From the IMG/VR virus record IMGVR_UViG_2713896897_000016, positions 1-29,363 of that record: a DNA stretch of 29,363 nt, one strand, 5' to 3'. Positions 632 to 15,743 of the stretch are shown here, in pieces. A program made the translations under genes and the position numbers. The first letter of the stretch is position 1, and each line of letters begins with the position of its first letter. The stretch comes from a virus. Its lineage: Duplodnaviria > Heunggongvirae > Uroviricota > Caudoviricetes. The notes under the pieces were generated by a model. The model saw only the letters and a program-made list of their open reading frames with translations, was not told where the DNA came from and made no database searches.

Positions 632-1744
632 TTAGTTGCCAGTTGCACGAACGCAGGCATACGGACGTTTCAGCATCACACCAGCAGTGGCGTTACTGAA
701 ATCCTCGGTGTAAAACTTCGCGCGCTGTTCAGCACCGATAGTGACGAACTTGGCAGGCACGAGCTGCGACCAGACGCCTTTGTCATCGGTCGAAACTTCA
801 TCAGCAAGGATGTTTTCGGCGTGAAGCTGCATGATGTTCGCGCCGCCGTTGGCACCGTCGAACTCCGGCGCGGTCTTGATGCGCCACTTCGGATAGGTTT
901 TGGAAATCCAGTCCTGTACGCTCATCCCCGTCTCAGTAGATACGCTGAGGTACGTGATTGAGCCGTTAGCGAGTGTTAACGTGCATTCGTTTTCAGTCGG
1001 ATCAACAACAGATTTCGAGTCAACCAGCAATGCGTTAGCGATCAGGCGGATATCTGCGGTGATTTCCTGGAATGTTTTACCGGACCATTTTGTCTGTCCT
1101 GATGCGCCAGCCGGGAGCGTTTTGTACGCCGGAGCCGCCGGGTCGTTCAACATACCGTAGGTGCGGTTAGTGCCGTTGTTGTAGCCGTAGAAACCAACGT
1201 CATTACGGTTGATTTCCAGAGCAATCGCCGCGCCGTTACGTTTGGTTGCCGCGCTATCAACTTTGATTTTGGCTGCGCGCGCTGATTCCAGATAACCAAC
1301 CTGCAACCCTTCTTCAAAGCGAATGACGCTGCGGCGCTCATAGCCGACGTTCCAGGACGACAGCGGGATATTGGTGTAGTCGCCGTACACCGCCGCTTTA
1401 CCCGTCAGTTCCATGACGGACTGGATGATCTCTTCGTCTTCCCAGCTACCGACAGTGGTAATGCCAATCAGGTCGTCGATTTTGCGCGGCTGCGTAACCG
1501 TGGCAACAAAGCCCGGTAGCCAGGTTTGCAACGCCTGGACTGGTACACCGTTGCTCGCCGCAGTGGTGAGGCCCGGCAAAGTGGTTGAGTCCATCGCCGC
1601 GCCCATTGTGCGCAGCGTGCGGGAATCCATGCAGATCCCCAGCTTAGACAGCCCTTTCGGATAGCCATCGCATTTCGTCAGATTGAGCGGGCGAACGTTG
1701 CGCGGCCCAATGTACGAATGAATTTGTGAAACGGTTTTACTCAT
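632..1744 (-). CDS. Major capsid protein (DUF2184-type)
   Basis: 370 aa ORF in the capsid position, downstream of a DUF2213-like gene and a small cement-like gene. The sequence style (..GITTVGSWEDEEI..GYERRSVIRFEEGL..) matches DUF2184 capsid proteins as I recall them. Confidence 0.8.
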   Translation of the reverse strand: MSKTVSQIHSYIGPRNVRPLNLTKCDGYPKGLSKLGICMDSRTLRTMGAAMDSTTLPGLTTAASNGVPVQALQTWLPGFVATVTQPRKIDDLIGITTVGSWEDEEIIQSVMELTGKAAVYGDYTNIPLSSWNVGYERRSVIRFEEGLQVGYLESARAAKIKVDSAATKRNGAAIALEINRNDVGFYGYNNGTNRTYGMLNDPAAPAYKTLPAGASGQTKWSGKTFQEITADIRLIANALLVDSKSVVDPTENECTLTLANGSITYLSVSTETGMSVQDWISKTYPKWRIKTAPEFDGANGGANIMQLHAENILADEVSTDDKGVWSQLVPAKFVTIGAEQRAKFYTEDFSNATAGVMLKRPYACVRATGN

Positions 1745-1754
1745 GATTTTTCCG

Positions 1755-2249
1755 TTAGTTAGTGAGCGTGATAACAGCAGGGCCAGCGCCAGCGGTAGAG
1801 AAATGCGTCACACGACAGTTCGGGACAAACGCACAGTTACTACCCGGATCTGTTGCGGATGCCGTGACAGTTGAGAGGATTCCTGTAGTTGTGTTGAACA
1901 CCACTTTTTGTCCAATTAATACGGCAGAGGAAAACGTGACAACGAGTATCCCCATAGAGCAGAACTCAGCGCTCAGGCCGTTGGGCAAAGCCATCGAGGC
2001 GTTCAGGGGGTTGCTCGAATCGCCGTACATAGGTTGGGATTTTGGATTGACCATGATCCCGACAAATGTGTCCGCCCCTCCGCCCGCAGTAACATGATCT
2101 CCGGCAGCGCTGAACGCGCGCCCGAAAACGTTGTTTTTGGCGTCAGAAGACTGGAGCACCGCAGAGCGCACACGGCTCGGACCCTCAGCGTAAAACTCAC
2201 CCGGCACGCCAAACGCCAGGGATTTATTGATAGCAGTTGGAAACGACAT
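1755..2249 (-). CDS. Small head protein, possibly Gp24-like structural cement/decoration protein
   Basis: 164 aa Gly/Ala/Ser-rich ORF between the scaffold-like and capsid genes. Its start overlaps the upstream stop (TAATG). The family call is tentative. Confidence 0.45.
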   Translation of the reverse strand: MSFPTAINKSLAFGVPGEFYAEGPSRVRSAVLQSSDAKNNVFGRAFSAAGDHVTAGGGADTFVGIMVNPKSQPMYGDSSNPLNASMALPNGLSAEFCSMGILVVTFSSAVLIGQKVVFNTTTGILSTVTASATDPGSNCAFVPNCRVTHFSTAGAGPAVITLTN

Positions 2250-3424
2250 TATTTGCCCCCCAGATATTTGGTAATTTCGTCACTATCAGCCGCGTCAGCC
2301 GCTGAATATGTGGTGTCGTCGCTGCCGCCGTAGTTAACAGGGCGTGCGTGGAGATAGCCCAGCAGCACGGCTTCTTCCATGCCGTCAGCACAGTTGATGC
2401 CGAGTTTTTTCACGCCGTATTTAGCGACTTCATCCAGCGTTTTTTCGCGATGGTCAAACGCGCCGATGTGGTGGGATAGTTGCTCTGCCAGCGTATCGCG
2501 GCGGGCGATCTGCCCCATGAGCATTTTCATTCCGTCTTTTTTAAAACCGTCCAGCGCGCTGCGCGTGTCCCGGATTTCTGCACGAAGTTTTTTAATTGCT
2601 GCGTCCTGCGCTGCTTTTTCTTCCGGTGGCACGTCCTCATCTCCGGTTTTTTCTTCAGGCGGTGTTGCCGTTTTTTCTTCCTCTGGTGGTGCCTCCTCAT
2701 CCGGTGTTGTCGCTGCCTGATTTGCGCCCTGTGCGGACTGGAATTGCTGGATAATCGGCATGATTTGTTTGATTGCTGCTGCGCACTGAGCCAGCGTCAT
2801 ATCTCCCTCGCCAGCGCCGTCGCCGTCCTGACCTTCTTTGTTTTCGCCTGGTTCTGCCATGTGTTTTAACTCCGATGAATCTATTGTGAATTTAAAGTGG
2901 TCGAGCACCGCGACCGTTGGCCCCATGCGCCCCTCATCAACCAGGGCAATGTGATTGCCGCGAATTTTGAGTTGCACATAGTCGTAGGGTTGACCGTTCC
3001 ACGTTCCCGGTCTGAATACGTATACGCAGCGATAGCCGCAGGAGAGTTCCTTTTTTCCGTCGGCGATTAGCTCTGCCAGACGCTGAGAAAAAACTTTGAG
3101 GTTTGCGTAGAGCGTTCCCTGATTTTCGTCGCCCTCAAAAACGACGTTTTCCCCGATAACGCCTTCAACGCCGTACTGCTCCGCTGGAGTCTCTCCCTCG
3201 CCGAGCATTTCGTGGTCGTTGATAAATGGCAGCAGCCTGAATGATTGCAGGCACTCAGGATCTGCCAGCGCCTCTGCGGGGCGGTAAACCATGTAGATTT
3301 TGTCTGCATCAGGCGCGCCGATGGTTGCCCCCATATACGGAAAAACCCCAACTTTTGAGATGGGGTTTTTGGGGATTTCGAACCAGTTGTTGAGGTCGTA
3401 TATTCGTTGAGATTGGCCCGTCAT
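2249..3424 (-). CDS. DUF2213-like prohead scaffold/protease-like protein
   Basis: The N-terminus ..IYDLNNWFEIPKNPISKVGVFPY..YRPAEAL..LPFINDHE resembles DUF2213 proteins. The C-terminus has a charged PPEE(K) repeat, which is scaffold-like. I chose the ATG at 3424 because it forms an ATGA overlap with the upstream stop. The longest ORF extends to 3475. Confidence 0.7.
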   Translation of the reverse strand: MTGQSQRIYDLNNWFEIPKNPISKVGVFPYMGATIGAPDADKIYMVYRPAEALADPECLQSFRLLPFINDHEMLGEGETPAEQYGVEGVIGENVVFEGDENQGTLYANLKVFSQRLAELIADGKKELSCGYRCVYVFRPGTWNGQPYDYVQLKIRGNHIALVDEGRMGPTVAVLDHFKFTIDSSELKHMAEPGENKEGQDGDGAGEGDMTLAQCAAAIKQIMPIIQQFQSAQGANQAATTPDEEAPPEEEKTATPPEEKTGDEDVPPEEKAAQDAAIKKLRAEIRDTRSALDGFKKDGMKMLMGQIARRDTLAEQLSHHIGAFDHREKTLDEVAKYGVKKLGINCADGMEEAVLLGYLHARPVNYGGSDDTTYSAADAADSDEITKYLGGK

Positions 3425-4294: not shown

Positions 4295-5735
4295 TGTCGT
4301 CCTCATACGGTTCGATTCCGCTGTACCCGCTGTCCGGGTCTTTGATAATCCGGTTGCGAACGTCCACACCGTCGATAGCGCCGACCTGTGCCAGCGCGGT
4401 ATCTGTCTGCGCTTTTTTGACGTTGATATCTGCCTGCTCAGTAGCCGTGAGTGATGCCACTGGTAACCAGGTGATTTCTGTTTCGACGGGTGAGATACCG
4501 AACCGTGGCGCAATAACGGACCGCATGAGCATTTGGTGATGACGCTCTGCCAGCGGCGTGAGGTCGTTTTCCTGGATTGCCTCCAGCTCCTCGTGATAGC
4601 TCGATTCCTTGTAGCTGCCGCTGGACTGAAAACCTTTCGGCGACGTACCCATCAGTTTTGTGACCGGAACACCCGACGCGCCAGCAACTAACTGGTATTG
4701 CGTCATCGTCACCGTGTCGACGTCAGCCAGCGCGGTATCTGTCTGCTGATACGTGTCGTTACGGTCGATAATTTTCACGCCGTAGTTGTTGAGGTAATAC
4801 ATCCACAACGCCATGCGTTCCTCAAACGCCACCTGGTCAGTGAGTGCCGCTGCTGTGTTAACCGACAAAACCGTGCTGCGCTTTGTCATCGCAAGCTGCG
4901 GCCCCTCGTTTGCCGTGCGTTCTGCTGCGTAGACGCGCTCAAATATTTTCTGCGGAATCGACACACCGCCGTAGTTGTACGTCGGCTTGAGGACGTCCGG
5001 CACTTCGTTAGCGCGGAAAATACAGAAATGTGAACGATGAACACGGCCCAGCCCGTTAACACGCCACCACGTTGGCTCGTAGAAATGCAGATTTGCCGGG
5101 TTAGCAGTTGCGTTGCGGTCCAGTTCTGGAGTGAGCCAGTACGGGTCTATCTGCGATATCCCGCGATAGCTGCCCGGTTTCACGCTGTCGATATTGAACG
5201 GTTTGGCGTAGTAGTTCGGGTCGTCAGAATCCACCATGAATAACGCGTGTCTGATGCCGAAAATGCGCCCCATACGCACAAACTCGCGCATGGATTTATT
5301 CAGGCCAAAACGTTTATCCAGCCTTTGCATTGCCGCGATAATTTCCGGCGTAGCCTCGCTGCCGTCGTTTACCGTGATTTCGTAACCGTTGCGCACCGCG
5401 TCACGCGCGGGCATTGTGCAGACTTTATCCACCAGCCAGTGCTGAGCGATAACAGCACAGAGTTGATAGCCAATAAATCCCTGGCTGGCGTACCAGCCCA
5501 ACTGAGCATCGGGAACGCTGGCATCAGTGCCGCCCCATTTGCCAATTGCGGCATCCATGCCGACACCTTTACGTGTGCGGGGCATTGGTTTCTGGAGACT
5601 ACGCGCCATCAGTGCGGTCCGGTCAATTTCCGGCATGAACAACGGCACATCAGTCGAAAAAAAACCCGCTCCAGATTTGGGCGGGTCATCATTTTTTGGC
5701 AGCGGTTCGGGCTGCTGTTTTTTGAAGGGCCACAT
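4203..5735 (-). CDS. Portal protein (DUF1073-type)
   Basis: 510 aa ORF immediately downstream of the terminase large subunit, with an acidic C-terminal tail. Size and position are typical of a portal. Confidence 0.8.
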
Positions 5736-7225
5736 CAGTCAAAGAATCCTCGCTGCGGGTTAATCAACATGTCGTCTACCGCGTCCATCGCAGTGTCCAG
5801 CATATCGTCGTTGTCGTGTGTATCGTCAGCAGTAAACGCAACGGCCTCGGCAATAAATCCAACTACCCACTGTGTTGTGCCAGCTATCGTTACGCCGTCA
5901 CTGTAATACGTGTGGAATATCGGGTTCCGGTCCGCGTCGTGAGTGTCGGGGATATAAACTTTTCCGGTTTTCAGTTGCGGGATACAGTTCAGGCATCTGA
6001 CCAGTTTATTTTCGCCGTCGCCACGCTGAACCGCGTTAACTGGAATAGCGCGCCGTTTTGTGAGCGTGGTTATCAGCCCCTGCCCCGCCTGTTTATCCTC
6101 GATAGCCATATAACGCAGCGCCGCACGCTGGAGAGTATCCGACGGTTGCCAGCGCTCCCACAGCTCCTCCGCTTTTCGTAGCAGCTCCTCCGGGTCCCAT
6201 TTCCCGCGCTCCATATCGATGATATACATGTTCCCGTCCACCCCCATACCCGCCAGGGTAAAAACGGTGTAGTCGTTAAAATCTTTAACTTTGCCGGAGT
6301 TGGTATCAACGTACACAGCGCGCCAGAGCAGGCGCGGTAATTTCCTGTACGTGCGAAACCATTCGCCGTTAATCAGCCCACCGGATAATGCTGCTGGATT
6401 TTGCTGGTACTGACTCAAAAACGTGTACGCGTCACGCTCCCACAGTGCCAGCAGATCTCCCACGTACTCCATCTCGGGCCAATACGACCAGTACCGGACG
6501 CCCGCGACGGTTACGCTGTCAGTGTTTTTTACGACGCTCCAGCACTGTGTTCGCCACGGTTCCGGCAGCGCGTCGATATATTCCTCGCCAATCAGCGCGG
6601 GAATAACGGTGTGATCAAAACTCAGGCCCATTCCACCAGTGAGCATAAACCCGGTCGCGTCATCAACGTGGAGCCGCTGCTGTATAGAAATAATCGGAGT
6701 GGGATTGTCTTTAGAGCGATCCCCACGACGGGAGCGAATTGTGTTTACCAGTAACTGGTTGGCAGAGGCGCGCTTCGTCTCCGAGAACATATCGAGCGGT
6801 TTATTAAAATCGTCGAGCAGCACATAACCCGAAAATTCGGGACCGGAATAACCACCACGACCGCCAGTAATCTGACCGCCACCAGCTCGCGACACGGTTT
6901 GCCCAACTGAACGCCCCAGCGCGTTGATTATCTCCCACTCGTCAGCCTGTTTGACGCCGAACTGACAGGGCCACAACTCCTGATACTCCGGGCTGGCAAT
7001 AATATCTCTCGTTCTGCGGCTGGTACGTTTAACGAGTGAATCAGAGAACGAAATATTCAGATTACGAAAACGTTGTAACTTTTTTTCCTGCACCAGTGCG
7101 TTGATATACGCTGGCAGATGAATAGAAAAAAATTCTGTTTTTGTTGAGCCAGGCGGGGTGTTGATAATCAGATTTCGTTTCGCTGCTGTGCCGTTAATAA
7201 TGCCGTCGATTTTCGCCGCCATCAT
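5735..7225 (-). CDS. Terminase large subunit (ORF as it stands; the true N-terminus is upstream of an in-frame TAG)
   Basis: Walker A-like [11 protein letters not shown] and Walker B-like [10 protein letters not shown] motifs, plus a C-terminal nuclease-type region. The same frame continues upstream to an ATG at 7363, interrupted only by a TAG at 7237-7235. Confidence 0.9.
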
Positions 7226-8352: not shown

Positions 8353-8603
8353 TAGCCGCTTTCCTTCTCTCGTCTCATTAGTTCAGTATACGCAGAACGA
8401 TCGCCATTTTTGGCGCGCTTATACAGAGCGCCGCGTAGTTCAGCCTCGCCTTTTGCTCGCCCCTTTCTGATTGCCTCGCGATATTCAGTGAGACGTTCCG
8501 GACTCGTTTTCAGTTCGTTGATATCCATATCCAGCACATCGGCAATTTGTTGCTCGCTCATGCGGCGCGCGGCGAGCGCCTGCACCTTTTGGAAATCAAT
8601 CAT
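8352..8603 (-). CDS. Small HTH-like protein upstream of the terminase genes (83 aa)
   Basis: I chose the ATG at 8603 (ATGATTGA overlap with the upstream stop) rather than the 8741 extension, which overlaps the preceding gene. MSEQQIADVLDMDINELK looks like an HTH. The stop overlaps the TerS start (TAATG). Confidence 0.5.
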   Translation of the reverse strand: MIDFQKVQALAARRMSEQQIADVLDMDINELKTSPERLTEYREAIRKGRAKGEAELRGALYKRAKNGDRSAYTELMRREKESG

Positions 8604-9996
8604 TGTGGCTGCCTTGCCTGAACGCACTAAGAACGTCCTCTGATCTCCCAATCGGGTTACCATCGGGGAACGGTAACTCGAACTCGAATCGAATTGCACT
8701 CTCCAGTTCGTGGTGCGGTTGCTGCTGTGTCGGTACTGCATGTACCTGATATGACGAATCTGAACAAACGTGGGACTTAATCGTTAATCCGTATTTGTCG
8801 CCGATTTTTTTAATATCTTCATCGGCATGAAATTTTTGATAGAACCAGTTTCCCTTTCGATACTTTGCGGAAAAATTATTCTCATCAAAAAAATAAATTT
8901 GCCCGGTCCTGGTTGCAGCCTGCATGCAGCGCATCATGTCCTGAATAAATTTGAGGCGACGCCCGGAGAAGAACAACTCCCCATCTGGCTTACATAGAGA
9001 TGCGATAAAGGTCAGCACAGCGTGCTCTGCTTGCAGGCTGTCAACGCTATTGAGTACGCTGTCACAAATAACGTAATCAAAGGGGCCGTGTTTTCTAACG
9101 GATTCGCACATTGCTGTGATCATCCGGTGGACTGCGCTGGAATCAATCACGTTCCCGGCACCGCGACGGCGGTATAGTTCTACATCCAGCAGGTTATATC
9201 CCTGCTTGCGAAGTAGGCGCGCATAGTCTCCCTGGCCTGAACCAAAATCGATACCTCTAAGCTTTTTGCTGTCCGGTTGTTTGAGTAGCCATGGAATGGT
9301 GAGGTTTTCGTATAGCCTGGATTTGATGCTCTTCACGCCAGTTGTACGTAAACGCATCATCTGTGCGTAGGTCTGGACGTAAGTTTTTTTATCCAGGTGT
9401 TCGTAGTTGAATACGCCATAGCTGCGATCGAGATATTTTTTGTATTTCTCCCGCATAGAATCAGGTATGACGTAAACCGTCAGCGGTACAGCCAAGTGTT
9501 TGCATGCCAGCACATATTGCGCACAGTGAATAACTTCTCCCGACTCAGTGGCAACACATCCACCCCACGATCCATACTTCAGGATCATGTCACTTATTTC
9601 CCTGCGAACGTATGCCAGCCGGGAGCGATAGTTTCCGGTGATACGGTCTGCAGTAACTTGAATAAAACCGTGGTGGCCCTTCAATCCAGAAATAAAACAG
9701 TGCTCATCACCGGAATCCATATCGGTGCCGTTGTGGAGCTGGTTGAACCGGATTTCATCATAAACCGTGGTATCGCGTGACAGTTCGAATACGGCAGCTT
9801 TTTCAGTGCCAAGCAGGCGAAGCGCCTTTGTACGTTGGTGGCCAGCCACCAGCAGATTGCCGCGAACGATGAGCGGCTTTACCAGGCCAAGCTCTCGAAT
9901 ACTCTCTGCCAGTTTCTCCAGATCCTCACCATCAATGTGACGCGGGTTATAGTCAGCGCCACGCAGTCCAGCGATGTCAAAATCAAGCGTGAGCAT
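8596..9996 (-). CDS. ParB-N (ParB/sulfiredoxin) domain protein fused to a class I SAM-dependent methyltransferase
   Basis: N-terminus: YNPRHIDGEDLEKLAESIRELGLVKPLIV..LVAGHQRTKA (ParB-N box). C-terminal half: IDFGSGQGDYARLL..LLDVE..DYVICDSVLNSV (SAM motif I and post-I style). The ATG at 9996 is preceded by GGAGGT. Confidence 0.75.
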   Translation of the reverse strand: MLTLDFDIAGLRGADYNPRHIDGEDLEKLAESIRELGLVKPLIVRGNLLVAGHQRTKALRLLGTEKAAVFELSRDTTVYDEIRFNQLHNGTDMDSGDEHCFISGLKGHHGFIQVTADRITGNYRSRLAYVRREISDMILKYGSWGGCVATESGEVIHCAQYVLACKHLAVPLTVYVIPDSMREKYKKYLDRSYGVFNYEHLDKKTYVQTYAQMMRLRTTGVKSIKSRLYENLTIPWLLKQPDSKKLRGIDFGSGQGDYARLLRKQGYNLLDVELYRRRGAGNVIDSSAVHRMITAMCESVRKHGPFDYVICDSVLNSVDSLQAEHAVLTFIASLCKPDGELFFSGRRLKFIQDMMRCMQAATRTGQIYFFDENNFSAKYRKGNWFYQKFHADEDIKKIGDKYGLTIKSHVCSDSSYQVHAVPTQQQPHHELESAIRFEFELPFPDGNPIGRSEDVLSAFRQGSHND

Positions 9997-10597
9997 CGTT
10001 ACCTCCGGTGAGATAAGCAACGAATCCGAAATGTGAACCCGATTTTTCTACAAACGCGTCAAACGCCCCCATCAGGCTATTCGATTCATCATCTGTCATT
10101 GGCACGCGTTTACGATTGAACGTTAACCAGTTCATATCGTCGGCCCCTGTCTGCCCCTCATCTTTATCAAACGCTATCGGAATACCGCCGTCTGCCAGCA
10201 GTTCGTCAAGCTCAGGTTCATTGAATCCGAGCAGTGAGAGATCATAACCCTCGCCCAGTAATTCGCTCAGCTCAATACGTAGTAGGCCTTCGTCCCAACC
10301 AGCGTTAAGCGGGAGGCGATTGTCAACCATTCGGTAGGCGCGTTTTTGCTGGTCCGTTAATCCCGTCAGGGTAATTGTTGGCACCTGCTCAAGCGTAAGC
10401 AATTCAGCGGCAGCGCACCGCCCATGCCCTGCGATAATTACACCAGCCTCATCGATTAGAACCGGATTGGTCCAGCCGTATTCCTTAATGCTGGCGGCGA
10501 TCTGTTCTATTTGCTCCTCAGAATGTGTCCGCGTATTTCTTTCGTACTCATTCAGTTCGGAAATGTTTTTAAAAATAACTGCTATCTGTTCAGCCAT
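9983..10597 (-). CDS. ParB-N (ParB-like nuclease) domain protein, 204 aa
   Basis: ISELNEYERNTRTHSEEQIEQIAASIKEYGWTNPVLID..IIAGHGRCAAA is a ParB-N signature. I took the ATG at 10597. The longer ORF to 10720 adds an implausible Pro/Gly/Arg-rich leader. Confidence 0.75.
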   Translation of the reverse strand: MAEQIAVIFKNISELNEYERNTRTHSEEQIEQIAASIKEYGWTNPVLIDEAGVIIAGHGRCAAAELLTLEQVPTITLTGLTDQQKRAYRMVDNRLPLNAGWDEGLLRIELSELLGEGYDLSLLGFNEPELDELLADGGIPIAFDKDEGQTGADDMNWLTFNRKRVPMTDDESNSLMGAFDAFVEKSGSHFGFVAYLTGGNDAHA

Positions 10598-10793
10598 GTC
10601 TATTCCGATTACTATTACCCGGCTTGCGCGAGCAAGTGGGCCTCGGTTTGTATCCACGGCGCGATGTGGGTATGAATGACTGTCGCCAGCTCCAACTGGC
10701 GGCGGTCGCCCACCTTCCAATAATCACTATCGAGCGCCAGTAATTGACGCTCTGTACTGTTTATTTGCTGTAAATTGTCAACGCGTCATATTG

Positions 10794-11755: not shown

Positions 11756-12076
11756 TTAGCGAGGCTGGTTATCATCCGTTACGTTTGTGAGTCGTTTTTT
11801 TCTCTGCGATACAATCCAGCGGACCCCGTGTACCCCGCCAATACCGATCAACAGTGCCACCAGCTCAGGCGTAACCTGCACCCCGTAAATTTGAGTTGGT
11901 ATCAACGGCTCAATAGCAAACGTGATTGCCGGACAGAGAATCAGATCTCCGACAGCCTGCCGCCAAGGCGCGCCCGTGTAGAACACCCTGCCGACAACGC
12001 CGACAATAGCCAGGAACATGAGCGTGATCGTGCCGTCGTTTCGCGCTACGAAATCGACTAATGATTTGTGAGGCAT
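11756..12076 (-). CDS. Holin, lambda S-like (class I, three TMDs)
   Basis: Three hydrophobic segments and a charged C-terminus (SQRKKRLTNVTDDNQPR). By-eye alignment to lambda S: GRVFYTGAPWRQAVGDLILCPAITF against [24 protein letters not shown]. Confidence 0.8.
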   Translation of the reverse strand: MPHKSLVDFVARNDGTITLMFLAIVGVVGRVFYTGAPWRQAVGDLILCPAITFAIEPLIPTQIYGVQVTPELVALLIGIGGVHGVRWIVSQRKKRLTNVTDDNQPR

Positions 12077-12514
12077 TGAATCTCACCCTTAAAAGAAATC
12101 AGTAAATAAGACGCTAACGCAACTGATTGATAAATGTTACGCCGAAAAGCGCATCGACCTTTTTCGCCTTATTGCAGATAAGCTAACGGAATTAAGTCAA
12201 TCAAGCCCCAAGCAAGTACAAAACGTAGTGAATGTTATCTATGAGCAAGAGAAACAGCACTACAAGGTTGTAATTTTCTTATGAGGTATATGAAATTGAA
12301 GAAAGCTGCCCCATCAGATTGCAAGCTCATTCAGTACCATTACACATCCTCAGGAAGACAGTTAACTAGAAGCTCCAAAGTTCCCTCTAGTTTGAATCCA
12401 TGAAATTCGGCGATTCATGGAACATAACGATCTCGCCTGAATCTTGATAAGCTGAAGGAAAGTCATCACGTTTTAGAGTAAAAGACCACCTGAAAAGGTT
12501 GTTTAGGGGCAATA

Positions 12515-12542
12515 CAAAAAAAGCGCCCGCAGGCGCTTTTTT
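12515..12542. terminator. Bidirectional rho-independent terminator
   Basis: AAAAAAA-AGCGCC-CGCA-GGCGCT-TTTTTTT. The perfect 6-bp GC stem is flanked by an A-run and a T-run. It sits 16 nt downstream of the stop of the 12558-13454 gene. Confidence 0.75.
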
Positions 12543-12557
12543 TATGATGCTAATTAA

Positions 12558-13454
12558 TTAGCTTAGCCCCTCTGCTTTACGCTGGGCTAAACGTGCTTTA
12601 AGTGAAGATGCGCTTAACACTGCACCTCGAGAAGAACCCGAGGTCTTTACTGCAACCCTTGGTTTCTGCTGAGTAGTGTTGCTCATTTTGGATCTTCCTT
12701 TTGCTGCTAAATTAGTTTGCGGACTATAACTCTTCACGTCTTGCTGGTCAAAGATTTTCGCTTCAATTTCCATCTCTTTATCATCCTCTTTTGACTCATC
12801 ATTCATCCATGCAAGCATTTCCTTCAGACAATCTACGCTTTCAAATCTCTCGATAATTTTAGTCTTTATCTTTTTATTGTAGTTGTCGATGTGGGCATCT
12901 GCAATCCAGTCTAACCGATCAATGACCTGAGCATTTTCCAACCAGATAATAAAGTTAAAATCACCACCAGAGCACGGATCCTTTTGGAAAGCAATGTTCA
13001 TACTTCGTGTAATCAGGTTTAGACCATGCTGCGAAAAGTCAAAAGCGCCACCAGTATTGATGATGCTAACGCTATCAATATACGAATTGATAGCATATGT
13101 TGAACCAGAGCCTGCACAGTAAAAAATGCTACCCAATGCTTTTAATCGCTCCGCACCTATGTAATAGGTAATCGCCCCACTCTTTCTATCCACCTCAATG
13201 AATTCACAGGTACTACGCTCTGCTTCAACATATTTTGCAATCCAATCGGCGAACTCCTCATCAACACCGATGCGGTCACCGATGTAGCCAGCCAAAATTG
13301 CTAAGATTGGGTCGATGTAGCCGGAAAAGAAAAGTATAGAGTCATTTAATACGTAATACTTCTTAAACGGTGCGGCTGCTGGCCTGTCTTCTTCATCCGT
13401 CCAAAGTTGGTCTACAGCAGCGAAAACAGAATCTTGTGCGATAATCGTAGTCAT
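12558..13454 (-). CDS. Orphan HslV/proteasome-beta-like Ntn threonine peptidase with an unrelated about 110 aa acidic-then-basic C-terminal extension
   Basis: It starts MTTIIAQD (HslV starts MTTIVSV), so Thr becomes N-terminal after Met removal. AAVDQ aligns to HslV AGDGQ (Asp17). FKKYYVLNDSILFFSG aligns to VKKVRRLYNDKVIAGFAG (Lys33), with the same 16-residue Asp-to-Lys spacing. CAGSGSTYA aligns to AIGSGGPYA. The alignment is by eye only. Confidence 0.6.
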   Translation of the reverse strand: MTTIIAQDSVFAAVDQLWTDEEDRPAAAPFKKYYVLNDSILFFSGYIDPILAILAGYIGDRIGVDEEFADWIAKYVEAERSTCEFIEVDRKSGAITYYIGAERLKALGSIFYCAGSGSTYAINSYIDSVSIINTGGAFDFSQHGLNLITRSMNIAFQKDPCSGGDFNFIIWLENAQVIDRLDWIADAHIDNYNKKIKTKIIERFESVDCLKEMLAWMNDESKEDDKEMEIEAKIFDQQDVKSYSPQTNLAAKGRSKMSNTTQQKPRVAVKTSGSSRGAVLSASSLKARLAQRKAEGLS

Positions 13455-13585
13455 TGATTCATTACATTTCTATTTTTTTCAAAATGATACAAAAAAATAA
13501 TGATTAAAGCGAATTTTTGAAGGTTAACTCAAACCCATTATGCATACAAAGTGTTGGGAGTCGTAGTAAAAAGACCTTCTAAATG

Positions 13586-13614
13586 AAAAAACCCCATCTG
13601 ATTGACGGGGTTTT
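13586..13614 (-). terminator. Intrinsic terminator-like hairpin downstream of the Q-like gene (tR'-position)
   Basis: AAAACCCC-(11 nt loop)-GGGGTTTT. On the minus strand the stem is followed by a T-run. It lies about 85-110 nt downstream of the Q-like stop, where lambdoid phages place tR'. Confidence 0.45.
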
Positions 13615-13697
13615 AAATTGTTTTGCTCAATGTGTAACACTGCCGAGCATATACAAATAGTGTCAGTTTATTTTTTCGTTTAATTAACAAAAAGTGC

Positions 13698-14354
13698 TCA
13701 TAAGTCTGAGTAGCCACGGGCTTGCATTGCTCTGCTTACATTTTGTAAATCAGTCAGCTCGGCTCTCAGTTCTCGCCGCATTGCATAAAACAAGTCTTCC
13801 TCTAAAACCTTCTCACACCATACAATCCGCTTTCGAGCGGCCTGCACATCTGTCCCTGTCATCCCTGCCAAAGTTACAGCTATACGGTGCGTGTTGAGGT
13901 GTGAGCAATGCCTGAGAACCGCAACCGCGTACATCGGGCTATCTTTTCGCAACGTCTTAACTATCACTCGCTCAATGAACTCCGCGTCATCATCAGCCTG
14001 AGTCTTTTCAAGCCAGTATTTTGTCGTGGATTGCGGGATCACCAATTCGCGTGCTTTTCGAAATAGTTCTTCGCCCCGCAGACCTTCTTCATGCAATCTG
14101 TTAACGGCATGGATGATGCGATCCGCGCTGCCCTGATCCCACTCCTTGCGCATCATTAAGCGTCCTATCACGCTTGATCCCGAACAGCCCGGGCAAGTAT
14201 CGCCCCCCATCACAGCTCCCCACAGGTTCAACATATACCGCACCCACACACGCTGACCCGGCGTTATAGTGCGTTTGCCGTGACACCAGATACGGCGTAA
14301 ATGCGCCTCACTGGTTATAAGCGGGAGTGATTTAAAACCGGCGTTATACGTCAT
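13698..14354 (-). CDS. Putative late-gene antiterminator (Q-like)
   Basis: It occupies the position between NinG and the lysis genes, with an ATGA overlap with NinG. It has a Cys-containing motif (GGDTCPGCSGSS). No close similarity to lambda Q was recognised, so the call rests mostly on synteny. Confidence 0.55.
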   Translation of the reverse strand: MTYNAGFKSLPLITSEAHLRRIWCHGKRTITPGQRVWVRYMLNLWGAVMGGDTCPGCSGSSVIGRLMMRKEWDQGSADRIIHAVNRLHEEGLRGEELFRKARELVIPQSTTKYWLEKTQADDDAEFIERVIVKTLRKDSPMYAVAVLRHCSHLNTHRIAVTLAGMTGTDVQAARKRIVWCEKVLEEDLFYAMRRELRAELTDLQNVSRAMQARGYSDL

Positions 14355-14958: not shown

Positions 14959-15159
14959 TCAGATCCACATCCAGTTTTGCCAGCAACGTCGGACGCGCGG
15001 AGGTTTTTCACTCTCCGGCAACCGGGCGCTGATAGTCCACGTGACGTGATCTGGATTCAGTTCTCGCACTATCTGAACGCCACGCGCGCGATAACGCTGC
15101 TGGAGTTCGTCGGCCTCAGCAGTTGTACAATTGTCGTGGTTAAACCAGGAGTATTTCAT
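14959..15159 (-). CDS. Hypothetical nin-region protein (66 aa)
   Basis: The ORF is coupled to the HNH gene (TAATG) and to ninG. No family recognised. Confidence 0.5.
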   Translation of the reverse strand: MKYSWFNHDNCTTAEADELQQRYRARGVQIVRELNPDHVTWTISARLPESEKPPRVRRCWQNWMWI

Positions 15160-15743
15160 TACGCCTCCTGCCGTTCGCGCAGGCGCATAAATTCAGAATC
15201 GTGGGAGAGCGTTTCGCAATAACTCCACCGCATACCTCGATGCAAGCCTTGACGCCCTTGAATTGATGCGTGAACCAAAGAGGGGTTGCAACCATACCCT
15301 CTGGTTGATTGCATTGATGGATACCAATACCCAAAGCCGTTCATTTCGGCGATAACCGGGGTTTTAATTTTATTGGATAGACCGGTTTCATTAGCGTGCC
15401 TCATATTCATTTTATGAGTACACCACTCTAAGTTTTCCGGTCGATTGTTGCGCTTATTCCCGTCTATATGATTTACATGGGGATAGTTGTTGGGATTGGG
15501 AACGAAGGCCATCGCAACAAATCTATGCAGCAATTTATGCCCTCCACCAACAGACACCCGAATGTAATGAGAAGTTATACAGCCCTTCAAAATACGACTT
15601 TTGATCGTTCTGGTAGTCCAGGTTTTTTTATCTTTTCCGCACGTAACTACCTCGCGTGACAGACTACGAACACGTGCAAAAGAGCTTACTTCAAAGCTGT
15701 TTTCGTAGCCCGGCACAGGCTTCCAGATTTCCCCCTCAAACAT
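15159..15743 (-). CDS. HNH homing endonuclease with an N-terminal NUMOD4 motif
   Basis: [24 protein letters not shown] (NUMOD4) and [19 protein letters not shown] (HNH). Confidence 0.85.

Follow-up and report, generated by a model that had tools for sequence, protein, structure and literature searches.

A predicted N-terminal-threonine hydrolase of the DPH family in a cassette shared by temperate phages and bacterial chromosomes

To our knowledge, there is almost no known biology for the bacterial proteasome homologues beyond HslV and the actinobacterial 20S proteasome. New homologues, including PPH, RPC and DPH, were defined in the survey of Fuchs, Alva, Lupas and co-workers (Fuchs et al., 2021, Bioinformatics 37:4694; PMC8665760), in which DPH, the 'Divergent Proteasome Homolog' with the type sequence WP_074989469.1, is recorded in a few Proteobacteria only and is not listed for phages, has no propeptide, and shows neither a genomic context that would hint at function nor a co-occurring AAA+ partner. 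The same survey describes PPH as a protein of about 140 amino acids that is found in phages and their hosts, and both PPH and RPC as devoid of the helix H2 (PMC8665760). DPH is known solely from this bioinformatic catalogue. Here we describe a DPH gene in a stretch of tailed-phage DNA of 29,363 nucleotides (IMG/VR record IMGVR_UViG_2713896897_000016; the whole stretch is referred to below as the window), where an open reading frame (ORF) of 298 codons lies between a gene for a Q-like late regulator and the holin gene. Whereas DPH as published is absent from phages and lacks an informative context, the copies discussed here include occupants of the cargo slots of prophages and of an inovirus.

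We consider it probable that this ORF, which is carried in a self-contained cargo cassette, encodes an N-terminal-nucleophile (Ntn) hydrolase of the DPH branch (proteasome-beta/HslV, MEROPS T1-like); a function of the product as an accessory proteolytic effector is the more speculative part of this reading. The original prediction, made by a model from the sequence of this stretch, knew of no described phage system built on a stand-alone HslV-like protease. This holds insofar as none has been characterised, whereas DPH, PPH, AAH and PHROG 1040 had already been catalogued; indeed, PPH, RPC, AAH and PHROG 1040 are likewise stand-alone proteasome-like genes carried by phages. New here are the boundaries of the cassette, the terminator that travels with it, the survey of its slots, among them those that carry toxin genes in lambdoid and in filamentous phages, and the family-wide conservation of a C-terminal tail.

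Family assignment, fold and catalytic residues

The gene and the parts of its product are as follows.

12558 to 13454, minus strand: predicted DPH-family proteasome-beta/HslV-like N-terminal-threonine hydrolase, 298 amino acids, identical to RefSeq WP_059215995.1 ('hypothetical protein')
12915 to 13454, minus strand: catalytic Ntn core, residues 1-180, with T2, D15, T19, K32, G45, G115-S116-G117 and D159-P-C161-S162-G163
12744 to 12899, minus strand: residues 186-237, two helices in the AlphaFold2 model (predicted local distance difference test score, pLDDT, ~87-94), no PDB or Pfam match
12561 to 12665, minus strand: conserved basic tail PRVAVKTSGSSRG..LKARLAQRKAEGLS, residues 264-298, with T271, R288 and R292 invariant family-wide

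The DPH type sequence is a Pseudoalteromonas lipolytica protein of 231 amino acids (locus L019) that our searches had already recovered as a distant relative; it matches the window protein in BLASTP (E=4e-11) and in tblastn (6e-8), and a phmmer search among 1.84 billion representative sequences reaches the close relative P0030 at 2e-5. The features of DPH group I are present as well: every member starts with MTT, helices H1 and H2 both occur, and all hosts are Gammaproteobacteria. The window protein and the type sequence share the invariant motifs MTT, D, WT, K, G-S/T-G and DxCSG as well as the basic tail. Because of the homology to the type sequence, the presence of all the invariant motifs and the presence of both H1 and H2, we place the window protein in DPH by sequence comparison; the published descriptions of PPH and RPC set it apart from both, given that the window protein possesses H2 (residues 66-79), which these two lack, and has a core of 180 residues, compared with about 140 amino acids for the entire PPH. 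The UniRef100 entry that contains the type sequence (P0040) is named 'GNAT family N-acetyltransferase', which looks like a misannotation because P0040 has proteasome-like motifs.

At the level of the fold, the window protein matches PHROG 1040, 'peptidase HslV family' (E=1e-7), and yielded only noise against NCBIfam, its HslV model included. An AlphaFold2 model built from 21 homologues has a pLDDT of 82.9 and a predicted template modelling score of 0.80, and Foldseek searches of the PDB and BFVD with this model returned a probability of 1.0. The model thus shows a proteasome-like alpha-beta-beta-alpha sandwich, with the core helices H1 at residues 47-62, H2 at 66-79, H3 at 118-135 and H4 at 140-158, and it is the agreement between AlphaFold2 and Foldseek that settles sequence evidence that is weak, albeit consistent. 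These profile and structure searches, which had been proposed as the check on the original prediction, bear out that part of it that called for a proteasome-beta/HslV-like protein with an N-terminal threonine (the PHROG match, the model and Foldseek all concur), whereas membership in HslV proper is not borne out, with no match to the Pfam or NCBIfam models.

The catalytic residues can be traced across the family. Judged over 18-21 sequences, with identities down to 25%, M1, T2, T3, D15, W18, T19, K32, G45, G115, G117, D159, C161 and G163 are invariant, and S116 and S162 nearly so. In the phmmer and hmmsearch alignments with proteasome beta5, GSGSTYA of the window protein falls on GSGQTFA and KDPCSGG on RDAYSGG; hhalign, which we used for residue mapping and not as proof of homology, places D15 on Asp17 of HslV and agrees on the C-terminal motifs, and the alignments of the three programs taken together put DPCSGG on RDAYSGG/RDSASGG and GSGS on GSGQ/GSGS. 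With beta5, Thermoplasma acidophilum beta and HslV as references, T2 is equivalent to Thr1 and D15 to Asp17, and T19, K32 and G45 are the putative equivalents of Thr21, Lys33 and Gly47; the GSG at 115-117 corresponds to the Ser129 loop, and D159, S162 and G163 correspond to Asp166, Ser169 and Gly170. The Lys33 equivalence is drawn from the FKK/VKK motif together with a constant offset. By this mapping, the window protein carries the complete set of proteasome-type catalytic motifs. The threonine nucleophile, Asp17, Lys33 and the GSG loop, all of which the original prediction had singled out, are therefore among the residues that are invariant or nearly invariant family-wide, with the qualification just given for Lys33.

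Like HslV of Escherichia coli, the window protein has the nucleophile directly after Met1 and no propeptide. In other respects it departs from HslV, which is a dodecamer of two hexameric rings: HslV comprises about 175 amino acids without a C-terminal extension, whereas the window protein, at 298, extends past its core by 120 residues; its SGG motif is the one typical of proteasome beta; and HslV has HslU as a partner, whereas no hslU adjoins the gene studied here. The identity to the 20S proteasome beta subunit, Anbu and BPH is 13-20%, and the window protein has neither a propeptide nor an alpha-type partner.

The excess of the window protein over the 231 residues of the type sequence consists mainly of about 50 residues of acidic helix plus linker. 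This second helix of the C-terminal region (207-237) is long and specific to the 298-residue subfamily of Enterobacterales and Morganellaceae; residues ~205-255 are absent from the relatives of 231-249 amino acids, and residues 238-263 of the window protein are predicted to be disordered. The basic tail has a different distribution. Its motif, [KR]-T-S-x3-4-G ... R-x3-R-K-A, is kept in relatives of 25-30% identity that lack the acidic helix, and because T271, R288 and R292 are invariant even there, we regard the tail as a hallmark of the family. The acidic helix and tail had been predicted to be an unrelated addition to the core, which is incorrect for the tail. AlphaFold2 models the tail with short beta-bridges and a helix at 282-294, the block-mean pLDDT being 65 for residues 261-270, 69 for 271-280, 90 for 281-290 and 84 for 291-298; in a second model, that of the 247-residue relative P0021, the pLDDT is 91.5 overall and 71-94 in the tail. 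The C-terminal 117 residues alone gave nothing significant against the PDB and PHROGs, and neither the tail nor the helices have a Pfam match. From the models, we infer that the tail could be a built-in regulatory or assembly element, or else a pseudo-substrate.

A cassette moving between phages and chromosomes

The mobile unit and the wider tract in which it was exchanged are delimited as follows.

13455 to 13497, minus strand: conserved 43-nucleotide leader that bounds the mobile module on its upstream side; comprises a T-run, a TATCAT box (13484-13489) and an untranslated A-rich region
12514 to 12545, both strands: bidirectional intrinsic terminator travelling with the DPH gene; folding energy -24.4 kcal/mol (minus strand) and -20.8 kcal/mol (plus strand)
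11967 to 14033: tract near-identical to the STEC384 prophage (L001), 6 differences in 2067 nucleotides, flanks ~5% different

In blastn, homology with the Klebsiella aerogenes locus runs from 13497 to 12514 and ends sharply on both sides, which delimits a module of about 1 kb composed of the leader, the ORF and the terminator. The DPH protein of K. aerogenes is 82% identical to that of the window, whereas the Q-like proteins that flank the E. coli and Klebsiella cassettes are only 26% identical and the adjacent holins belong to different families. The gene thereby has the attributes of a moron, namely a terminator of its own, a deviant base composition and sharp boundaries of homology in otherwise unrelated phages, and the claim of a self-contained cargo gene is upheld by the confinement of the homology to 12514-13497 despite such dissimilar Q-like neighbours. 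These comparisons show a cassette of about 1 kb that moves between unrelated temperate phages and chromosomes. No direct or inverted repeats of the kind expected of a transposon or an att site flank the island.

A recent movement can also be traced. The tract shared with STEC384 takes in about 110 nucleotides of the 5' end of the holin gene and about 335 nucleotides of the 3' end of the Q-like gene, and the occurrence of such a near-identical tract within flanks that have diverged by about 5% indicates that the cassette was exchanged recently, by recombination in the edges of the Q and holin genes. The GC content of the DPH gene is 0.41-0.42 in every enterobacterial host. Relative to the Klebsiella copy, the ratio of nonsynonymous to synonymous substitution rates (dN/dS) is 0.07, with synonymous sites saturated, so that the coding sequence shows the mark of strong purifying selection.

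The downstream hairpin, AAAAAAAGCGCC-TGCG-GGCGCTTTTTTT, has its first base 15 nucleotides past the DPH stop codon. The strong bidirectional terminator that had been predicted at this position indeed folds stably on both strands, although a simple terminator scan missed it because its A and T runs pair. Of nine contexts, drawn from six genera, seven have the element AAAGCGCC-N3-5-GGCGCTTTTTTT after the DPH gene (E. coli, Klebsiella, Lelliottia, the prophage lineages L028 and L030, Erwinia and Proteus).

The family is exceedingly rare: DPH relatives make up 21-23 clusters in 5.8 billion proteins, and 14 in 1.84 billion cluster-representative sequences. IMG/VR holds one contig with a DPH homologue (L025), and the island occurs in 2 of 5426 complete E. 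coli genomes. A collection of 50,697 phage genomes contained no copy detectable by tblastn with the protein, no megablast match to the island and, in sensitive blastn, no match to the spacer 12077-12520; in a plasmid collection, the island matched only through 30 nucleotides of the terminator. Three E. coli genomes (NY1601, TB06051 and OW967178) contain annotated CRISPR spacers that are 100% identical to sites in the island. One protospacer, 13401-13433 (minus strand), lies within the DPH coding sequence and is preceded by AAG, and two others, 12292-12325 and 12283-12315 (both plus strand), lie in the downstream spacer region and are preceded by ATG; AAG and ATG are protospacer adjacent motifs of type I-E systems. 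This amounts to three spacer matches in the 1.6 kb of the island, compared with at most two records matching at >=99% identity in the 12-kb structural part.

The sites that the cassette occupies fall into several kinds. In all six Enterobacteriaceae prophages examined (E. coli, Klebsiella, two Citrobacter lineages, Lelliottia and one further lineage), the gene sits in the Q-to-holin slot, alongside three Q families (DUF1133, PF06530 and PF06323) and three holin families. Elsewhere, the Erwinia copy lies between icd and a prophage integrase, the Vibrio splendidus copy adjoins an integrase at a site that holds two different elements, the Pseudoalteromonas copy is found between two integrases, and the Aliivibrio copy near a P2-like prophage. 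The IMG/VR contig (IMGVR_UViG_2648501426_000001), 8.5 kb long, represents a filamentous phage of the Vibrio type (Zot E=5e-40, DUF1293) with a short DPH gene at 6001-6741, after zot and a 195-codon ORF. In at least four Proteus species and in Morganella, the DPH gene has a fixed place on the chromosome, in conserved synteny and away from phage genes, which implies that the DPH protein needs no phage. The slot named in the original prediction is the constant one in the six Enterobacteriaceae prophages, whereas integrase-adjacent, post-zot and chromosomal sites are found elsewhere. In Proteus sp. CD3, many tandem copies of the 8-mer ATTTAAGT precede the chromosomal DPH gene (L010, ~5740-5930). 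The Klebsiella prophage with the closest DPH copy (L002) has an AbiL-like gene pair in its nin region (1440-3169, minus strand; AbiLi E=9e-27, AbiLii E=9e-4).

Two of these positions are classic toxin slots. The gene comes after Q/tR' and before the holin gene, exactly as stx2 does in Stx phages, and the inovirus copy follows zot, the position that in CTXphi holds ctxAB; both stx2 and ctxAB are cargo genes of these phage slots. Their products are secreted AB5 toxins, whereas DPH is predicted to be a cytoplasmic-type hydrolase with a free N-terminal threonine and no signal peptide.

No neighbouring gene is conserved across the DPH loci, and no AAA+ gene adjoins the DPH homologue in any of the loci examined. 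Citrobacter-type prophages have a gene for 336-339 amino acids between Q and DPH, on the opposite strand; we rejected it as a candidate partner, since it is absent elsewhere and has no family match. It is a second cargo gene in the Q slot, with no PADLOC or Pfam match (4737-5756, minus strand, in the Citrobacter freundii locus L007; 3748-4758, minus strand, in L030).

Transcription signals and surrounding genes

The signals upstream of the cassette and the genes around it are the following.

13588 to 13614, minus strand: intrinsic terminator resembling tR', located after the Q-like gene and reported by the terminator scan (11 pairs and a T run); folding energy -15.8 kcal/mol, z -4.0
13503 to 13532, minus strand: candidate promoter TTGAGT-N18-TTTAAT of the original prediction; string present, unreported by the consensus scan
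13698 to 14354, minus strand: Q-like late regulator, 218 amino acids, DUF1133 family, directly downstream of ninG; Pfam DUF1133 24.8 bits, cutoff 23.1
11756 to 12076, minus strand: holin of the lambda S family, first lysis gene; Pfam Phage_holin_3_1, 26.4 bits
11243 to 11728: CHAP-domain endolysin, next after the holin, from the Pfam search of the window proteins
12093 to 12284, plus strand: LigA-like helix-hairpin-helix remnant, a start-less frame of 63 codons (no ATG, GTG or TTG), outside the DPH module

The predicted tR'-like hairpin upstream of the ORF was recovered by the terminator scan. Its distance to the ATG is about 130 nucleotides in the window and 30-60 nucleotides in most phage copies, and a hairpin with a T-run is found 30-130 nucleotides upstream of the DPH gene in all six Enterobacteriaceae Q-slot prophages. 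Between the Q-like stop codon and this hairpin, neither the promoter scan nor inspection by eye revealed a convincing pR'. The position of the hairpin shortly before the ATG in most phage copies makes late transcription under the control of Q, in the manner of stx2, no less likely than expression in lysogens. The promoter that had been proposed for the gene itself did not fare well: the string is present, but it fails the consensus scan and lies outside the module conserved with Klebsiella. The sole upstream element conserved with the Klebsiella copy is the T-run with the TATCAT box (13484-13497), which is a possible weak promoter of the cassette's own, and some promoter would in any case be required by the chromosomal copies.

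With respect to the layout of the locus, the original prediction was accurate. The GC content is 0.37-0.44 over ~12000-13800, against 0.50-0.57 in both flanks, which agrees with the AT-rich Q-to-holin stretch that it described; the ORF listing contains the same intact 298-codon ORF, the one long ORF of this stretch, with the N-terminus MTTIIAQD; the DUF1133 and Phage_holin_3_1 matches agree with a Q-like gene and a holin on the two sides; and the claim that a partner ATPase is lacking is likewise correct, as the window encodes no AAA+ unfoldase. The 218-codon gene is called Q-like because of its position and because the PF06530 antiterminator-Q proteins of some related loci also match DUF1133 weakly (PF06530/DUF1133 co-hits in L007), so that an antiterminator role appears plausible; its neighbour NinG scores 233 bits in Pfam.

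The LigA-like remnant lies in the 437 nucleotides that separate the cassette terminator from the holin, on the opposite strand; it matches a ligA ORF in tblastn (E=3e-6, 49% identity) over the helix-hairpin-helix region of the NAD-dependent DNA ligase. The Klebsiella locus, in which only about 150 nucleotides separate the DPH gene from the holin, lacks this remnant, and in STEC384 it is unannotated. Two small ORFs, 12281-12403 (plus strand) and 12387-12512 (minus strand), were dropped as genes, having no family matches. The island contains no transfer RNA genes, and an Rfam search of it gave only sub-threshold small RNA matches, all on the terminator hairpins.

Several further observations concern other parts of the window. 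A homing-endonuclease-like gene with NUMOD4 and HNH_3 domains (15159-15743, minus strand), upstream of ninG, lies in a second AT-richer patch (GC 0.42-0.46) and does not occur in the part of the STEC384 prophage that could be aligned. An ORF of 474 codons directly after the lysis genes (8596-10020, minus strand) combines a ParB N-terminal domain with an S-adenosylmethionine-dependent methyltransferase domain, and the equivalent region of STEC384 cannot be aligned with it as DNA. Finally, a non-coding segment of 103 nucleotides (10622-10724) shares 90% identity with a site that lacks annotation and is present in about 69 E. coli plasmids of ~48 kb, such as that of ATCC 25922.

Possible roles of DPH

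How might such a protein work? Methionine aminopeptidase removes N-terminal methionine. With the nucleophile directly after Met1, this removal would expose Thr2 and activate the protein without any need for a propeptide. Asp15, Lys32, Gly45, Ser116, Asp159 and Ser162 would complete a proteasome-type active site, and given such a complete site, cleavage of peptide bonds in the cytoplasm would be expected. There would be no dedicated unfoldase; instead, the conserved basic tail, modelled as though packed on the core, would regulate the enzyme or mediate its assembly. The putative order pR'/tR' - DPH - terminator - holin in the prophage would lead to high-level transcription together with the late genes, with the Q-modified RNA polymerase reading DPH as the first late gene and then continuing past the cassette terminator to the lysis genes, as happens with stx2. 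That the product is an accessory proteolytic effector in phage-host or phage-phage conflict, and not a component of the virion or of lysis, is a speculative proposition. A broader generalisation, which we put forward tentatively and would not bet on, is that the DPH proteins are unfoldase-independent, self-regulated proteases spread by lambdoid, P2-like and filamentous phages as single-gene conversion or defence effectors in the slots of the Shiga and cholera toxins, with the tail serving as a built-in switch that replaces an HslU-type activator.

Several facts weigh against the probable reading of the ORF as a DPH-branch hydrolase that is carried as a self-contained cassette and acts as an accessory proteolytic effector. 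Pfam gave no match at E values up to 10 for the window protein and all 21 relatives; the best hit of the PDB sequence search, proteasome beta5, came at E ~0.01, which is weak support from sequence; and hhalign of the family profile against single sequences of HslV and T. acidophilum beta produced only short, local matches of low probability. The putative equivalence of G45 to Gly47 and of T19 to Thr21 comes from a constant offset of -2. The TATCAT box is not accompanied by a recognisable -35 element, and the promoter scan is silent there. The chromosomal Proteus and Morganella copies weaken explanations tied to late expression. Furthermore, we found in the literature no enzymatic, expression or phenotype data for any member of the DPH family.

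Two alternative accounts of the role are equally viable in our judgement, and each of them is unlikely when taken singly. The first holds that DPH is an anti-phage defence or abortive-infection effector that is expressed in the lysogen from its own promoter, such that an incoming phage triggers the destruction of a phage protein or of an essential host protein. A single-gene AT-rich cassette with its own terminator is compatible with this scenario, as is the recurrence of the gene at prophage ends beside integrases and in integrative islands, which is where prophage defence genes usually reside; moreover, expression from the inovirus cargo slot must occur in a living carrier cell, and chromosomal copies need a promoter of their own. 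Yet neither the window protein nor the short relatives match PADLOC-DB v2, no sensor domain is evident, the promoter is a candidate on which the consensus scan is negative, and 6/6 enterobacterial copies lie behind a tR'-like hairpin in the late operon, where they would be silent in lysogens unless a promoter exists.

The second account, to which we assign the same low likelihood, makes DPH a protein that serves the phage late in infection, a bulk Q-dependent product that degrades proteins of host defence, of the stress response or of proteostasis, for counter-defence or for takeover of the host, and so secures the burst. It is favoured by the recurrence of the pR'/tR' - gene - terminator - holin arrangement with three unrelated Q and three holin families, and by the fact that virulent phages, too, carry stand-alone proteasome homologues (PHROG 1040, the BFVD matches, PPH/AAH). 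What it does not accommodate are the chromosomal copies that are inherited vertically, in synteny, by at least four Proteus species and by Morganella, the integrase-adjacent and non-lytic inovirus copies, which do not fit a role coupled to lysis, and the failure of tblastn to find a copy in any of the sequenced phage genomes of the collection.

Considerably less probable is an alternative HslV, that is, a protein that forms HslV-like hexameric rings, docks on host HslU and redirects or replaces the host HslUV. The shared N-terminal arrangement notwithstanding, the window protein fails the Pfam Proteasome model along with the NCBIfam HslV model, resembles proteasome beta and Anbu at least as closely as it does HslV, and carries 120 extra C-terminal residues; and no AAA+ co-occurrence was found for DPH by Fuchs et al. 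(PMC8665760). Slightly less probable still is that DPH is not a protease, being instead a Thr1-dependent ligase or transpeptidase, similar to connectase, or an amidase that acts on a small molecule or a modified peptide: the window protein scores much better to true proteasome beta, it fully retains the proteolytic set equivalent to Ser129, Asp166 and Ser169, and the helical insertion between S3 and S4 that is the signature of connectase is missing. Very unlikely, on the conservation data, is a decaying or non-functional passenger ORF, a notion that might be suggested by the annotation as 'hypothetical protein' only and by the rarity of the family, but that sits poorly with a gene that is intact in all copies, evolves at the dN/dS given above and has invariant catalytic residues across Enterobacterales, Vibrionales and Alteromonadales.

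Whatever the exact role, the DPH genes now have a genomic context, that of a cassette of about 1 kb that moves from one accessory slot to another among temperate phages and has, on occasion, become fixed in a chromosome. If DPH is indeed an active protease that has no ATPase partner, it would represent a new minimal model of regulated threonine proteolysis and, perhaps, a new kind of phage-borne effector.

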